Source of the DNA: a virus | Taxonomy: Duplodnaviria > Heunggongvirae > Uroviricota > Caudoviricetes | Virus record (IMG/VR): IMGVR_UViG_2563366964_000004 | Length of the DNA: 6,806 nucleotides | Reading direction: 5' to 3' (one strand) | The notes under the pieces: model-generated | What the model was told of the DNA's origin: nothing | Database searches by the model: none | The model's input: the letters and a program-made list of their open reading frames with translations, nothing else | Translations under genes and position numbers: made by a program | Shown here: piece after piece, positions 1 through 6,806 of the stretch | Layout of the letters: every line of letters starts with the position of its first letter | Numbering within the stretch: position 1 is the first letter of the stretch

Positions 1-228
1 ATGGAAAGAAATGAAGTACAGCGTGACTGGCATCGCATTGATATTGTCGCCGAGCTGCACAAGCGTGGCGTCACTATGCGCGGCCTTTCCGCCAGCGCGG
101 GACTAAAACCCGACACGCTGAAAAATGCGCTGGCACGCTCTTATCCAAAAGGAGAGCGCATTATTGCAAATGCTCTCAATTTAGAACCCGCCAGTATCTG
201 GCCAAGCCGTTACAACAAGGACCTGTGA
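1..228 (+). CDS. ner: Ner-like DNA-binding transcriptional regulator (Mu Ner / Nlp family), 75 aa
   Basis: 75-aa ORF matching the size of Mu Ner. Motifs DWHRIDIVAELHKRG ... PKGERIIANALNLEPASIWPSRY parallel Mu Ner and E. coli Nlp as I recall them (DWH.AD..., PKGE.IIA.AL, IWPSRY). Stop TGA at 226-228 lies 1 nt before the transposase ATG. The ATG is at window position 1, so its promoter and operators are off-window. Confidence 0.85.
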   Translation: MERNEVQRDWHRIDIVAELHKRGVTMRGLSASAGLKPDTLKNALARSYPKGERIIANALNLEPASIWPSRYNKDL

Positions 229-229
229 C

Positions 230-2287
230 ATGTTCGTGACTGTTAACGAATTAGTTGGCGTCCCTGGATTGCCAACAACACAACAAGGACTGCGATACAG
301 TCTTAAAAAAAGTGCAGGCAACTCCCCTGAACTGGTTCGCAAGCGTGCTGGCAGCAAAGCATTCGAGTACCACATCGACTGCCTTCCTGAACAGGCGCGT
401 GAAATAGTCAAAGCCCGGCATTATCGGGAGGTGTTGAAACAGTCTGATTGCTCACCCGCTCCAGCGGCACCAAAGCGGGAAGTCACCACGACCCGTGATG
501 AGCTGGCGTTATTACGGCAGTGCCCGGTATTGCTGGAGCGTGAAGTTTCCGACCTTACCGAACGCCAGAAACAGATCGCCGATGCGCGTGCATTATTAGC
601 CGCAGAGGTTGAGCGCCTTCGGGATATCGGTATGTCTCGCGCATCGGCGGTTGAGTTCATCGCCAAAGAGTCACGCAAGGGTTCACTCCCGGAGAACATC
701 CAGGCTGCGGCTGATATTGCCAATGCCCGTAAAGGCTCCAGCCGCCGTGGCGTGGGGGAAAGAACACTCCAGGAATGGCTGTCTGTTTACCTTTCAACCC
801 GCCCTGGTATCGAACGCCTTGCTTTACTGGCCCCAGGCCATCTTAAAGCGCGTAAGCCTGAACAGATTAAGTGGCTCCCTGATTTTCTTGCTCACTGGCG
901 GAAACTCTCAGGCCCTTCCCTGGTTGATGCGTGGCGTTCATTCAAGACTGAATGGCAGGCTATCTATGCGGGACAGCCAGCGATGCTCGCAGTCTGCCCG
1001 TCTTATGATGCCGTTCGCCGTGCGATGGAAAAGTTGCCCAAACGTGAACGCGCTCGCGGCCGTATCAGCGGTTCAGCGGCTCTGGCCTTTGAGGTTTACC
1101 AGAAACGTGACTGGTCACAGATGCCTGTAAATGGTTGCTGGATTGCGGATGGTAAATCGCTGGATATGAAAGTTGCTCATCCGGTCCATGGCCGCCCATT
1201 CACGCCCGAACTGACGCTGGTGATTGATGGACGAACCCGCTTCCTGGTGGGCTGGAGCCTGGCGCTCTCGGAGAACGTCATCGCCGTAGCGGATGCCTAT
1301 CGCTACGCCATGAAATTCCACGGGAAACCTCTTTTTGTTTATTCGGATAACGGTGGCGGCGAAACGAACAAAACGCTGGATGCTGATATCACCGGTATTT
1401 TCACCCGCATGGGGATTGATCACCCGACCAGTATTCCTGGCCGACCTCAGTCTCGCGGGATTATCGAACGCCTGAACGCCGTAATACCGAGAGCGATCGC
1501 CAACAAATTTGATACTTACAACGGATTCGGGGCCGACCGTGAGCATGTCCGGATGACCGGTCGCGCCATCCAGTCAGCGATTAAGGCTCAGGAGAATGGC
1601 CGCGAGCTCACGAGCGTACAGCGTAATGCGCTGCGTAAACTGCCGTCATGGCAGATGCTGCTGGATACCATTGCCGAGGAAGTCGACAAATACAACAACC
1701 TGCATGAGCACAGCGAGTTACCGAAGCGTAATGGTGTTCATATGACGCCAGCACAGTACCGTCGCGAGGTCCTGGCCACTGAGGGGGACGAGATTGAATA
1801 TCTGACGGATATCGAACTTCGTGAAGCCTTCATGCCGGAAATGTGCCGTACGGCCCAGAGAGGCTGGATTGACCTGATGAACAACCAGTATTTCAGCGCT
1901 GACCTGATACAGGTCGATGGTGAAGAGGTTCGTGTTGCCTATGACATTCACGACCCTGCCGCCGTCATCGTTCGCCGTATGGACGGTACTTATGTCTGCA
2001 CCGCCATCTGGAACGGCAACAAGCGTGCCGCGCTGCCAACCAGCATGATGGATATCGCCGTTGAGAAACGCCGCCAACGTCGTCTGAAGCGCATTGACGA
2101 ACAGCGAGAAGAGATTGAAGCAGAGGCGCGAGGACTGCTGCCAGAAAGCGATATGTACCCTGATTTCGGCGCATTAATACCATCAGATGCCGAGCGTATT
2201 AATGATGACCGGGAACACGTGTTCCTGTTCGAGTCAGAGCGAGAAGAGTGGCTGAAAAGTCAGGGCAATAAAAAAGCGGCCTTCTGA
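230..2287 (+). CDS. A: Mu-type DDE transposase (MuA-like), 685 aa
   Basis: Long ORF directly after ner, with AAGGA (216-220) upstream of ATG 230. The N-terminus (VTVNELVGVPGLPTT) resembles the MuA N-terminal DNA-binding domain (SPKECANLPGLPKT). Candidate DDE triad: D307 in WIADGKS (nt 1148-1150), D373 in VYSDNGGG (nt 1346-1348), E413 in SRGIIERLN (nt 1466-1468), with Mu-like spacing. Basic, charged C-terminal tail as in MuA. Confidence 0.9.
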   Translation: MFVTVNELVGVPGLPTTQQGLRYSLKKSAGNSPELVRKRAGSKAFEYHIDCLPEQAREIVKARHYREVLKQSDCSPAPAAPKREVTTTRDELALLRQCPVLLEREVSDLTERQKQIADARALLAAEVERLRDIGMSRASAVEFIAKESRKGSLPENIQAAADIANARKGSSRRGVGERTLQEWLSVYLSTRPGIERLALLAPGHLKARKPEQIKWLPDFLAHWRKLSGPSLVDAWRSFKTEWQAIYAGQPAMLAVCPSYDAVRRAMEKLPKRERARGRISGSAALAFEVYQKRDWSQMPVNGCWIADGKSLDMKVAHPVHGRPFTPELTLVIDGRTRFLVGWSLALSENVIAVADAYRYAMKFHGKPLFVYSDNGGGETNKTLDADITGIFTRMGIDHPTSIPGRPQSRGIIERLNAVIPRAIANKFDTYNGFGADREHVRMTGRAIQSAIKAQENGRELTSVQRNALRKLPSWQMLLDTIAEEVDKYNNLHEHSELPKRNGVHMTPAQYRREVLATEGDEIEYLTDIELREAFMPEMCRTAQRGWIDLMNNQYFSADLIQVDGEEVRVAYDIHDPAAVIVRRMDGTYVCTAIWNGNKRAALPTSMMDIAVEKRRQRRLKRIDEQREEIEAEARGLLPESDMYPDFGALIPSDAERINDDREHVFLFESEREEWLKSQGNKKAAF

Positions 2288-2332: not shown

Positions 2333-3226
2333 ATGTCAGCTAAAAATGAACTTGTCGAACTGATGAAAGCAAAAGGTCTTAACCAGACGCAGGTCGCCCG
2401 CGCTATTGGTAAGAGCTCTGCCGTAATCAGCCAGTACCTGAATAATAAATACGACGGCGATATTGCATCGCTGGAAAACGATATTCGTAGCTTTATCGAT
2501 CGTCAGCATGAAAAAGAGCGCTCGGCACGTATCAGCGTCAAATTTGTTGATACCCCAACAACGCGCAAAGCCGTTGATGTTATACGCATGGCGCACGTCG
2601 AAGGTGATATCAACGTGCTTTACGGCGAAGCCGGTCTGGGCAAGACGATGATTTGCAAAGCCTACGTCTCTAAATACCGGGATGCGTTGCTGATTGAGGC
2701 CGACCCTGGCTACACCGCACGCGTAATCCTGGAAGAACTCTGCAACCTGCTGGGGCTCAGTACCCGCGGCAATATGCATGAACTTAGCGAAGCCTGCATC
2801 AACAAGCTGCGCGACTCTGGGCGCGTGCTGATTATTGATGAAGCTGAGAACCTCCCTCTGCGTGCGCTGGAATCTATCCGCCGCATTCATGACAAAACGG
2901 GGATCGGCATCGTCCTGGTTGGTATGCCTCGCCTGATTCTGAACCTCAAGGGCAAACGCGGTGAGCTCGTACAGCTCTATAGCCGTGTCGGTTTCGCCCT
3001 CAACCTCGGGCATAGCCTGCCGGGTGCTGATATTGACGTCATCGCCAGCAGCGTTCTCCCGGATGGCCTGAATGAAGACCTGAGCAAAGCGCTGTTCAAC
3101 GCATCAAAAGGTAATGCCCGCCGACTGTTCAAGCTACTGCGCGGTGCAGTTCGTACCAGTGCAATGAATGATGTTCCGGTCAGCGGTCATATCGTCAATC
3201 AGATAGCCGAAATGCTGATCCATTAA
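2333..3226 (+). CDS. B: Mu-type transposition ATPase / target DNA activator (MuB-like AAA+), 297 aa
   Basis: RBS GAGGAAG before ATG 2333. N-terminal HTH-like segment (LNQTQVARAIGKSSAVISQYLNNKYDGD, compare MuB FINDKYNGD). Walker A GEAGLGKT (about nt 2624-2647) and Walker B VLIIDEAENL (about nt 2825-2854). Size and position immediately after A match MuB. Confidence 0.9.
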   Translation: MSAKNELVELMKAKGLNQTQVARAIGKSSAVISQYLNNKYDGDIASLENDIRSFIDRQHEKERSARISVKFVDTPTTRKAVDVIRMAHVEGDINVLYGEAGLGKTMICKAYVSKYRDALLIEADPGYTARVILEELCNLLGLSTRGNMHELSEACINKLRDSGRVLIIDEAENLPLRALESIRRIHDKTGIGIVLVGMPRLILNLKGKRGELVQLYSRVGFALNLGHSLPGADIDVIASSVLPDGLNEDLSKALFNASKGNARRLFKLLRGAVRTSAMNDVPVSGHIVNQIAEMLIH

Positions 3227-3246: not shown

Positions 3247-3525
3247 ATGCTGACTTTAACATCAGATAACACGCTGGTTTCAGCGCTGTATCGTACCGAA
3301 GCTGTTGTCGTTTCCCTCCAGGCTCGTGGCGTGGAAGTGAAAGGCATCGTGGTTCGGGAAGGTCAGCCGGTCATTCGTATTCAGCGCCATGCCATGTGTG
3401 ATTACCTGCTCACCAGCGGTAAAGCCAGCTACATCGAATATGGCCAGGGGAAATCGGGTAAATACCGCCAGGGCCTTTTCATCCAGGACGGCTGTCGTGT
3501 CGTCTGGTCAGAATCTATTCATTGA
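3247..3525 (+). CDS. Hypothetical early-region protein, 92 aa (occupies the position of Mu kil)
   Basis: ORF with RBS AAGGGGG (3236-3242) 4 nt before ATG 3247, 20 nt after the B stop. Same strand and codon usage as neighbours. No family recognised by eye. Confidence 0.6.
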   Translation: MLTLTSDNTLVSALYRTEAVVVSLQARGVEVKGIVVREGQPVIRIQRHAMCDYLLTSGKASYIEYGQGKSGKYRQGLFIQDGCRVVWSESIH

Positions 3526-4370: not shown

Positions 4371-4604
4371 ATGTATGTTCTGGTAGATCGCACCCATGCC
4401 CGTAAACCATGCAGTCCATTTATGTCTTATGCAGTCAGCGCTGTACTTGCTGAGCAAGTTGGCGATTTTCATAACGCTGCAACAGCCTGGAAAACTGCAT
4501 TCAGCCTGGCGAAAACAGAGGTCAATTCTATCTGGGCAATATCGCGAATGGAGTTCTGTCTTCATGCGGCGAATCGTGGTTGGGGGATTCCGAATGAAAG
4601 CTAA
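4371..4604 (+). CDS. Small protein, 77 aa, possible ANR/PerC-like regulator
   Basis: ATG 4371 lies 1 nt after the upstream TGA (4367-4369), with GGGGGTG just upstream. The pattern A..AE..GD...AA.AW..A...A...W...R.EFC resembles small ANR/PerC-type prophage regulators as I remember them. The ORF track's longer 4146 start lies inside the upstream gene and is rejected. Confidence 0.45.
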   Translation: MYVLVDRTHARKPCSPFMSYAVSAVLAEQVGDFHNAATAWKTAFSLAKTEVNSIWAISRMEFCLHAANRGWGIPNES

Positions 4605-4785
4605 AGAGTTCAATCTGCGATACCCGGTTGGCAGCGTCTTTATTTATCAGCCAAATCCGGTTTTACGTGGCGGTAAGGTCGTCAGCACCGTTGACCAGGC
4701 TCGTGACTGCCGCGATGTATCGGTAGTTGAAATAAATCAAGAACCTTATTTCGCCAATATTAAATCGCTGATACCAGCTAGCTGA
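4594..4785 (+). CDS. Hypothetical small protein, 63 aa
   Basis: ATG 4594 preceded by TGGGGGATT, overlapping the previous gene's end (4604) by 11 nt. Product MKAKEFNLRYPVGSVFIYQPNPVLRGGKVV... No family recognised. The track's 4396 start would make most of the ORF overlap the previous gene out of frame, so the internal ATG is preferred. Confidence 0.45.
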   Translation: MKAKEFNLRYPVGSVFIYQPNPVLRGGKVVSTVDQARDCRDVSVVEINQEPYFANIKSLIPAS

Positions 4786-4865: not shown

Positions 4866-5588
4866 ATGGAAAATAAAGAGAAATATCTCCAGCGTATTAA
4901 AAAACTGCTGGCAATGGCGCGTAATAACTCCAGCGCTGAAGAAGCAGCACTCGCGCTGAGCCGCGCCCAGCGCCTGATGGAAACCCACAAACTGACTGAA
5001 GCCGATGCGGCGATGATGGATATCAACGAGGCATCCACTCAGAAAGCCCCATCACATGCTGAAAAGATGCCTGAATATATGGCGCTACTGGCTCATATGA
5101 TAGCGCTGGCATTCGGGGTTAAGTTCTATACCACCCACGGTCATGAGCGCTGGGATGCTCCAGCAAAACGCACCATCACCTATTACGGACCGGACGAACG
5201 TCCGCAGGTTGCAGCTTATTCCTTCGAGGTTCTTGGCAAGCAGCTGGCGAAGGCCCGTCGTGAATACACCGCCACGTTGCGTAAAAATATCAAACCCGCC
5301 ACCAAGGTGGCTCGTGCCGATACGTTCTGCTCTGCCTGGGTGAATGGTGCCTATGCCGTTATCAGTGACTTTGCCGTCACTGAGGCCGAAGAGACTCTCA
5401 TGGAGAGCTATCGCAGCAAAAAACTGAGTCAGGGCATGAAGAAACTGGAGCCTCGTAAACCGGGAAAAGCCAGCGGCACCGATGATGCAGCTAATCAGGG
5501 TTATCGGGCTGGCCGCAATGCGCAGTTACATCATGCTGTGACGGGGTCTTCAAATGCTGTAGCTCGAATTGAAGGGGGACCTCAATGA
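4866..5588 (+). CDS. DUF2786-like phage protein, 240 aa
   Basis: RBS AAGGAG 8 nt before ATG 4866. The N-terminus KYLQRIKKLLAMARNNSSAEEAALALSRAQRLMETHKL matches the DUF2786 signature as I recall it (K.L.LA....N..EAE.A...AQ.LM). The family is frequent in prophages. Its stop overlaps the next start (ATGA at 5585-5588). Confidence 0.7.
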   Translation: MENKEKYLQRIKKLLAMARNNSSAEEAALALSRAQRLMETHKLTEADAAMMDINEASTQKAPSHAEKMPEYMALLAHMIALAFGVKFYTTHGHERWDAPAKRTITYYGPDERPQVAAYSFEVLGKQLAKARREYTATLRKNIKPATKVARADTFCSAWVNGAYAVISDFAVTEAEETLMESYRSKKLSQGMKKLEPRKPGKASGTDDAANQGYRAGRNAQLHHAVTGSSNAVARIEGGPQ

Positions 5589-6088
5589 GAGATATCACCG
5601 CACTGGCGCAACACCTAAGAGTGTATGCCGAAGAATTCAGTTATCCGGTTCTATCTCCTGATGATTGCAAAACGCTGGTAGATGCGCTGGAAGCAGGACA
5701 ACCACACCACAACGGCCTGATGCAGCTCTCTAATGAACTGGTGATGGCTAAGCAGAGAATCGCAGAACTGGAGTCCGGCACAGCCACCGCGTCGCAGAGC
5801 GATTACTTTGCCTCTCTGGTAGCAATGGCTCGTGTTTCAGCAGAAAAAGCGATGCGGAAGTTCCCTCAGCCGAACTACGTGCTTCTTAAGGTTGCGGAGG
5901 AAGCTGGCGAGGTCGTGCAGGCCGGGGTCCATTACGCAGAGAAACGGATGGAGTGGCAGCAGGTAGAGGGCGAGATTGTCCAGCTGTTGGCAATGCTGAT
6001 TCGCCTGGTGACGGAGGGCGACCAGATTAATGGCATCACTCCTCCGGCCGATGGCATCCAGGTTATCGAAGGGGATAATTATGACTGA
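5585..6088 (+). CDS. Protein with MazG-like (all-alpha NTP pyrophosphohydrolase-like) C-terminal half, 167 aa
   Basis: RBS GGGGGA before ATG 5585. The C-terminal half LLKVAEEAGEVVQAGVHYAEKRMEWQQVEGEIVQLLAMLIRL shows the two acidic helices typical of MazG/HisE-like nucleotide pyrophosphohydrolases (EE.GE ... E.E..LL..L..L). The N-terminal ~90 aa is unassigned. This is a fold-level call from motif only. Confidence 0.55.
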   Translation: MRDITALAQHLRVYAEEFSYPVLSPDDCKTLVDALEAGQPHHNGLMQLSNELVMAKQRIAELESGTATASQSDYFASLVAMARVSAEKAMRKFPQPNYVLLKVAEEAGEVVQAGVHYAEKRMEWQQVEGEIVQLLAMLIRLVTEGDQINGITPPADGIQVIEGDNYD

Positions 6089-6446
6089 ACAACAGCGCAA
6101 GCCGGTGGTATTCATCGCCGGGCCGATGACCGGGTATCAGGATTATAACCGGGCAGAGTTCGACGCCGAGGCTAGTGTCCTGTCCGATCGAGGCTTCACC
6201 GTACTAAATCCGGCGATACTTCCAGATGGCCTTGAGCACCAGCAATATCTGGCAATTACGCTGGCGATGCTGGAGCAGGCTGATTCCGTTTTCCTCCTGG
6301 ATGGATGGGAAAAAAGCCGGGGCGCAATGCAAGAATTTCAGCGTGGCCGTGAGTTAGGTCTGGTATTTATGTTTCAGTCATGGGAGACAGCAACCCTCGC
6401 CATTATGCATAACCGCTACTCTCTTCGGGAGGTGACCAGTGAATAA
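6081..6446 (+). CDS. DUF4406 / nucleoside 2-deoxyribosyltransferase-like (DNPH1-like fold) protein, 121 aa
   Basis: ATG 6081 preceded by GAAGGGGA, overlapping the upstream stop (ATGACTGA). Motifs VVFIAGPMTG, VLNPA and LLDGWEKSRGAMQEF (conserved Glu77 at nt 6309-6311) match the DUF4406 signature and the D-G-x-E-x-S-x-G catalytic pattern of that superfamily. The track's 6030 start lies inside the upstream gene and is rejected. Confidence 0.65.
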   Translation: MTEQQRKPVVFIAGPMTGYQDYNRAEFDAEASVLSDRGFTVLNPAILPDGLEHQQYLAITLAMLEQADSVFLLDGWEKSRGAMQEFQRGRELGLVFMFQSWETATLAIMHNRYSLREVTSE

Positions 6447-6654
6447 TGTTATTGGATGCCAGTTCCTGGACAATGGCAATCGACGCATCTGGCATTTTCG
6501 AAACACCAGCCAGGTTGTTGAATACCCCAAATTACCTCTCCGAATCCGATTCCAGTTTTTTGATGCTCATAACAGGAAAATTCGTGGCAAGGCCGAGCAA
6601 AGTGAAATGAGAAAAGCCATTGACCATTATCGGAAGTTACGGGGGATTAAATAA
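6439..6654 (+). CDS. Hypothetical small basic protein, 71 aa, GTG start
   Basis: Strong SD GGGAGGTG (6427-6434) before GTG 6439, which overlaps the upstream stop (GTGAATAA). Arg/Lys-rich product (…RKIRGKAEQSEMRKAIDHYRKLRGIK), possibly nucleic-acid binding. No family recognised. Confidence 0.45.
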   Translation: MNNVIGCQFLDNGNRRIWHFRNTSQVVEYPKLPLRIRFQFFDAHNRKIRGKAEQSEMRKAIDHYRKLRGIK

Positions 6655-6806
6655 TGGATATCGGCTGGGTTTTAATTCTTATTATTTTTTATTTTCACCT
6701 GGGCTGGTGTTGGGTCAGCGTCCTGGAACGTATTAATCCAGATTACGTCTGGTCACCTCTCAAGCACACCGCTGCACTGCTCCTTTGGCCATTCAGTCTA
6801 ATCCTT
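6654..6806 (+). CDS. Partial CDS (3' end off-window): small hydrophobic, probably membrane protein
   Basis: ATG 6654 overlaps the upstream stop (TAATG). Open to the window end (51 codons) with no stop. Translation MDIGWVLILIIFYFHLGWCWVSVLERINPDYVWSPLKHTAALLLWPFSLIL has two hydrophobic stretches consistent with transmembrane segments. Not in the ORF track, presumably because it is truncated. Confidence 0.35.
   Translation, partial: MDIGWVLILIIFYFHLGWCWVSVLERINPDYVWSPLKHTAALLLWPFSLIL

Follow-up and report, generated by a model that had tools for sequence, protein, structure and literature searches.

In phage Mu, the semi-essential early region (kil, gp6–gp15, gam, gemA) consists of small, tightly packed accessory genes that lie between B and gemA/mor and are served by the early promoter. 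Activities that kill the host, enhance replication or modulate immunity have been mapped to this region by classical Mu genetics. For the transposable Pseudomonas phage Fc02, small proteins of the immunity and early regions are reported to show superinfection exclusion in experiments (PMC9936078). The stretch of DNA that we analyzed, 6,806 nucleotides (nt) of IMG/VR record IMGVR_UViG_2563366964_000004 (hereafter the window), comes from a Mu-like transposable prophage and makes up its left, early end, and the last two open reading frames (ORFs) of the window sit in an arrangement like that of the Mu region. ORF-A encodes a 71-amino acid (aa) soluble, basic protein and ORF-B a small membrane protein. 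Mu itself has no homolog of either: at the equivalent slot its gp13 and gp14 are soluble, with gp13 being Cys-rich, and Mu Kil (PF26843) and Mu gp6 (PF26833) gave no Pfam match to ORF-A or ORF-B at E ≤ 0.1 to 1. We assign a probability of roughly 0.5 to the reading that ORF-A and ORF-B serve this Mu-like transposable prophage as accessory genes of its semi-essential early operon, independent of each other and with the roles proposed below. Both are ordinary catalogued accessory genes of the kind that phage annotations call "hypothetical".

That both ORFs are genuine genes is close to certain, because the proportion of nonsynonymous differences (pN) lies far below that of synonymous differences (pS) and because both match families of the PHROG collection. 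Between divergent loci, the pN of ORF-A is 0.09–0.26 against a near-saturated pS of 0.67–0.94, and that of ORF-B is 0.32–0.42 against 0.64–0.87; both genes are under purifying selection. ORF-A matches the phrog_9400 hidden Markov model (HMM) over its full length, with residues 3–67 aligning to profile positions 6–70 of 74 (E = 1.2e-20). For ORF-B, nine of 11 homologs match phrog_6436 over nearly the whole length, with a best E of 1.5e-8, and the window lineage gives a weak match (E = 0.012). As judged by these profile matches, the ORF-B family as a whole belongs to phrog_6436, with the window copy alone being marginal. A first-pass annotation of this DNA, made from the letters alone, had recognized no known family for either product. 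This remains correct in the sense that neither falls in a functionally characterized family, but both are catalogued in PHROGs, whose function is unassigned.

The same annotation had the second ORF running off the window and proposed extending the sequence past position 6806. Eight loci with 10-kb flanks (L004–L011), each 96–99.6% identical in nucleotide sequence to the last 777 bases of the window, extend beyond it, and in all eight of these near-identical prophage copies ORF-B is complete at 64 aa (MDIGWVLILIIFYFHLGWCWVSVLERINPDYVWSPLKHTAALLLWPFSLILVDAGMEDTHDHHD). The frame is therefore a complete gene that is conserved in related prophages and under selection, as ORF-A is, and only its start needed correction, from 6656 to the ATG at 6654.

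ORF-A begins with a GTG codon, as first described, and in its relatives a GTG or an ATG start codon stands at this same position. Its Shine–Dalgarno (SD) sequence, GGGAGGTG, places a GGAGG core 6 nt ahead of the GTG with an anti-SD pairing energy of −11.6 kcal/mol. This is second among the gene starts of the window, the highest being that of a 92-aa gene at 3247 (−11.9 kcal/mol), so the site that had been called the best in the window is indeed strong and is tied for strongest, not uniquely best. The same octamer also occurs at window positions 425–432, within the transposase gene, where no start codon context was noted. A 54-aa ORF in the +1 frame inside ORF-A (6446–6610) was rejected as a gene, as its length is what chance would give with the ORF-A codons (P = 0.25–0.68) and the frame is closed in distant relatives.

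The ORF-A product has an isoelectric point (pI) of 10.95 and a net charge of about +9.8. The strongly basic C terminus noted at first reading is evident in residues 44–71, which hold 10 Lys or Arg against three Asp or Glu. Basic character is uniform in the family, with all 30 aligned members having a pI of 9.75–10.95 and a net charge of +5 to +16, and near-invariant positions include C7, G13, R16, E28, P33, R37, F38, F40, M57, A60 and K66. A HMMER profile search of 1.84 billion representative proteins returned 36 matches at E ≤ 0.001. The confident members are stand-alone proteins of about 70–75 aa, and a few long proteins match the profile only over short stretches with weak scores. Across 72 loci (48 distinct variants), ORF-A always lies within a Mu-like early operon upstream of GemA. 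The exact protein is indexed in 65 blocks of a public assembly collection. We found no match for ORF-A in Pfam, NCBIfam or PDB sequences; the PADLOC defence HMMs gave only a chance-level match to CARF_RelE (E = 0.019, 12.4 bits), and a scan of genome contigs gave one spurious 16-residue match in Lentisphaera.

Three isolated phages carry ORF-A (Pseudomonas phage VW-6B and two Klebsiella phages), in each case at an equal distance from the genome end and annotated as hypothetical. The phrog_9400 members VW-6B gp12 (ATN93616.1) and QBA84954.1 of Klebsiella phage ST405-OXA48phi1.1 are full-length homologs with 35–45% identity to ORF-A, and they share with it both the distance from the left genome end of a Mu-like phage and a position upstream of GemA and Mor. 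They differ from ORF-A in being 74 aa long, in ending in …WRFE or …WRLA instead of …RGIK, and in being followed by an HD/YfdR-like hydrolase in place of ORF-B; none of these proteins has been characterized.

Structure prediction and a Foldseek search, both suggested as checks in the first-pass annotation, gave a confident fold for ORF-A and no specific structural homolog. The AlphaFold2 model, built with a 30-sequence alignment, has a mean predicted local distance difference test score (pLDDT) of 93.2 and a predicted template modeling score (pTM) of 0.80. It places strands at residues 4–10, 15–20, 25–28 and 38–41, a short helical turn at 34–37 and a helix at 51–68, and we are confident in this model of a four-strand β-meander followed by a basic C-terminal helix. 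Foldseek returned nothing below E = 0.14 in the PDB or E = 0.075 in BFVD. The Polo-box domain and a sulfatase C-terminal subdomain resemble the modeled fold at 5–18% sequence identity and a Foldseek E of 0.14 or worse, a likeness of generic topology that carries no functional inference. We take the predicted fold to be real, and structural comparisons with the model tell nothing specific about function.

One distant member of the ORF-A family, P0034, is named "KTSC domain-containing protein" in UniRef. We rejected this label, as none of 30 family members, P0034 included, matches KTSC (Pfam PF13619) at E ≤ 10. Phage KASIA carries two bona fide KTSC proteins (PMC8541194), and these, p035 and p038, served as positive controls, with Pfam KTSC matches at E = 1.7e-8 and 1.1e-10. 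Aligning the ORF-A family with the two KASIA proteins by hhalign gave a probability of 0.24% over seven columns, with a reference profile of only two sequences.

ORF-B had been described as hydrophobic and likely to span the membrane twice, and our analysis agrees. Hydropathy places two hydrophobic segments at roughly residues 3–24 and 39–52, and a single-sequence AlphaFold2 model (pLDDT 73) predicts a helical hairpin with helices at residues 3–27 and 33–59. We obtained divergent homologs by reading the neighborhoods of ORF-A relatives. At 25–53% identity, these keep Y-x-x-L-G-W-C-W in the first helix and W-P-x-S in the second, as well as an acidic tail beginning D/E-A/S. Net charges across the 11 homologs are 0 to +4 in the loop, 0 or −1 at the N terminus and −2 to −7 in the tail. 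By the positive-inside rule, this pattern predicts that the loop is cytoplasmic and that both termini, and with them the acidic tail, are periplasmic (N-out/C-out).

The exact ORF-B protein occurs in 232 contigs from Citrobacter, E. coli, Salmonella and Kluyvera, and it is always labeled "hypothetical". Comparison with Pfam, NCBIfam, PDB sequences and PADLOC gave no match to a characterized family, with nothing in PADLOC, and a word-indexed protein search returned only near-identical sequences. A tblastn search of ORF-B variants against an annotated collection of isolated phages gave no match, although its low-complexity filter may mask hydrophobic queries. In both sequence and length, the truncated ORF-B of the window equals a 51-aa "partial" protein of E. 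coli KTE40, which suggests that the window ends where an assembly contig ends.

ORF-A and ORF-B are interior genes of a single long early operon, whose genes nearly all overlap their neighbors. The two genes are co-oriented, with a geometry of translational coupling. In and around them, we found neither a terminator nor an Rfam match, and promoter-like signals did not rise above chance; we rejected non-coding explanations on these grounds. The first-pass annotation was right in placing them among phage early genes: Ner, MuA, MuB, DUF3164 and DUF7168 lie upstream, and GemA, Mor and a GH19 endolysin lie downstream. They are not, as it supposed, at the distal end of the cassette. Beyond ORF-B, the operon continues with the 64-aa hydrophobic ORF-C, a 128-aa phrog_536 protein, GemA, Mor and one more ORF, followed by the lysis genes, which include the GH19 endolysin and DUF2644.

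On the reading that we favor, ORF-A and ORF-B would be transcribed from the early promoter together with the transposition genes, and translation of each would be coupled to that of the gene ahead. ORF-A would be a cytoplasmic single-domain protein, with its β-meander packed on the basic C-terminal helix, and may bind nucleic acid (DNA or RNA, of the phage or the host) early in lytic growth. We propose this activity tentatively, at somewhat less than even odds. It is the likeliest one because of the uniformly high positive charge of the family and its placement among enzymes of nucleotides and nucleic acids, the neighbors of ORF-A being HD hydrolase, DUF4406, MazG-like and DnaQ-like genes. ORF-B would insert in the inner membrane as a helical hairpin in the orientation given above, with a short N terminus. 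It may act on an envelope process, through exclusion of superinfecting phage or interference with host membrane function, the likeliest role for it, though one that we put at well under even odds. A functional precedent for this possible role comes from Fc02, also a transposable phage, whose 7.9-kDa protein and gene 10 product are likewise small and encoded in its immunity or early region (PMC9936078). The Fc02 exclusion genes adjoin the repressor and ner, however, and do not stand before gemA, and no relationship to ORF-B in sequence was tested for or found. A host-takeover function, which the first-pass annotation raised for proteins of this kind, is plausible as judged by genomic context.

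That annotation also raised the possibility of a regulator/effector pair. Several features make it attractive to regard the two genes as a functional module, be it regulator and effector, toxin and antidote, or a basic protein docking on an acidic tail: they adjoin with a stop/start overlap throughout an enterobacterial clade except in two members, ORF-A is directly upstream in 18 of 20 ORF-B loci, and their charges are opposite, about +10 for ORF-A and −2 to −7 for the ORF-B tail. Neighbor tallies over the 72 ORF-A loci and over 20 viral contigs that carry ORF-B speak against it. ORF-B directly follows ORF-A in about nine of the 48 variants, all from the enterobacterial clade whose proteins end in …RGIK, and roughly 39 variants have another gene next. 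An HD/YfdR-like hydrolase is found downstream, directly or within about 600 nt, in about 20 variants from Klebsiella, Serratia, Pseudomonas and others, a phrog_19503 protein in about five and DUF4406 in about three; the remaining variants carry other cargo (DnaQ-like exonuclease, MazG-like, Cys-rich or coiled-coil proteins). ORF-B is missing from whole clades (Klebsiella, Serratia and Pseudomonas phage VW-6B), and no small hydrophobic gene was found to recur after ORF-A outside the enterobacterial clade. Two of the 20 ORF-B loci, in turn, lack ORF-A: in L075 (2888–3001) a deletion took DUF4406 and most of ORF-A, left an …ALRGIK remnant and kept ORF-B, and in L093 ORF-A is entirely absent. Since either gene can persist alone, common descent in one lineage accounts best for their adjacency. 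The stop/start overlap, being the norm along the whole operon, says nothing specific about these two genes, and the acidic tail of ORF-B, predicted to be periplasmic, lies apart from a cytoplasmic ORF-A. The two genes are likely not an obligate pair, and an obligate toxin–antitoxin or regulator–effector module is not supported, because the two do not strictly co-occur across lineages; a functional module of any of the kinds named is improbable. Equally hard to credit is a role for ORF-A as an accessory subunit or regulator of an adjoining nucleotide-metabolizing enzyme (DUF4406, HD/YfdR-like hydrolase or MazG-like). In about three quarters of the variants, DUF4406 or an HD hydrolase is found no more than about 600 nt from ORF-A, and DUF4406, the commonest upstream neighbor, keeps its adjacency through changed gene order, being upstream in about 13 variants, in combination with any downstream class, as well as downstream in the few mentioned above. 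About a quarter of the variants, however, have neither enzyme within 5 kb (L037–L042, L057–L059, L067 and L071–L073), the two enzymes have unrelated folds, so a single 71-aa partner for both is unlikely, and the counts do not represent independent events, the sampled phages being related. An apparent ORF-A::HD fusion in L045 (1291–2052) is a frameshift artefact, due to one additional A in a poly-A run where the genes overlap, and no evidence of a functional link.

Small size, two transmembrane helices and a charged C-terminal tail would also suit a protein of lysis timing, a holin or antiholin, but for ORF-B this is very improbable. The location speaks against a holin: ORF-B is a gene of the early operon and not of the lysis cassette, the GH19 endolysin follows about 2.1 kb downstream, beyond GemA, Mor and another gene, and a small neighbor of its own, DUF2644, adjoins the endolysin. 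Holin tails are typically basic, whereas that of ORF-B is acidic, and its charge pattern predicts the N-out/C-out topology. A chance origin of one or both frames in a gene-dense operon might be suspected from their shortness, the lack of Pfam matches and the "hypothetical" label in every source. It is effectively refuted by purifying selection and PHROG matches for both, by length and motifs conserved at 25–60% identity, by the confident fold of ORF-A and by a competing +1 frame no longer than chance. A more far-reaching proposal, which we consider unlikely, is that ORF-A founds a new class of small basic nucleic acid-binding proteins of transposable phages, for example a modulator of transposition–replication or a shield of phage DNA, and that ORF-B, separately, forms with an FxsA-like ORF-C a new envelope system for keeping out competing phages or for countering exclusion by the host. 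For the two genes of the window, we retain the reading of independent accessory genes.

ORF-C resembles ORF-B in its pN/pS behavior and is likewise under purifying selection. In IMG, it carries the label "UPF0716 family protein affecting phage T7 exclusion". The FxsA model matches five of six ORF-C homologs, in all cases below curated cutoffs (best E = 0.0046) and over only the first ~40 of 109 profile positions. The phrog_536 protein, which stands directly before GemA, is conserved in many of these phages.

The coordinates of these features are collected in Table 1. The 121-aa call for the DUF4406 gene is taken from the near-identical loci, and its stop overlaps the ORF-A start by 8 nt. The C-terminal half of the 167-aa ORF in the window region 5585–6446 weakly resembles MazG/NTP pyrophosphohydrolases (PHROG E of 0.005–0.03), and with DUF4406 it makes up what looks, by sequence, like a nucleotide-metabolism pair directly upstream of ORF-A. 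Other Mu-like phages have an HD/YfdR-like hydrolase, a MazG-like protein or a DnaQ-like exonuclease in the same slot. Frameshifts in DUF4406 and ORF-A were observed in L022/L077. Window positions 4594–4785 encode a member of a small β-rich protein family (phrog_5591/phrog_19503; motif RYPVGS…VV.VEG) that occurs once or twice per phage at varied places in the early operon, in some phages directly after ORF-A.

Table 1. Features of the early operon in and just beyond the window. Positions refer to the window unless a locus is given; L010 is one of the eight near-identical loci.
Feature	Position	Strand	Description or support
Ner-like gene	1–228		
MuA-type transposase	230–2287		685 aa
MuB-type ATPase	2333–3226		297 aa
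Small ORFs, then DUF3164, DUF2786/DUF7168, 167-aa ORF and DUF4406 gene, in that order	after MuB		
DUF4406 gene (nucleoside 2-deoxyribosyltransferase-like)	6081..6446	+	121 aa; Pfam PF14359, E = 1.9e-27
SD sequence of ORF-A	6427..6434	+	read directly
ORF-A	6439..6654	+	71-aa soluble, strongly basic protein; GTG start, TAA stop (6652–6654); ORF listing, phrog_9400
SD-like GGGGGA ahead of ORF-B	6641..6646	+	weaker; duplex energy −8.6 kcal/mol
ORF-B	6654..6806	+	first 51 of 64 codons, predicted two-helix small membrane protein; ATG overlaps ORF-A stop (TAATG)
ORF-C	L010 10394–10588 (just past window end)		second 64-aa small membrane gene; overlaps ORF-B end
128-aa protein	L010 10576–10962		basic N terminus, Cys-rich C terminus; phrog_536 "transcriptional regulator", E = 1.4e-27

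The prophage occurs in Salmonella serovars, Citrobacter, E. coli and Kluyvera. Its chromosomal site differs in every genome examined (flanks of L004–L011), and different host-gene neighbors at each insertion are as expected for an active transposable phage. A megablast search of 5,426 complete E. coli genomes gave no match, and a search for distant relatives in them found one genome with a remote relative; this near-absence indicates that the prophage is rare in that set.

Salmonella, Citrobacter, E. coli and Klebsiella commonly carry Mu-like prophages, and most of the genes in the semi-essential early regions of these prophages have no assigned function. ORF-A is among the more widely retained small genes of these phages, and as a compact, confidently folded domain it is well suited to biochemical study. 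Functions directed at the envelope are candidates for ORF-B and ORF-C. Without suggesting a new principle, a function for ORF-A or ORF-B would add a piece to the biology of transposable phages.
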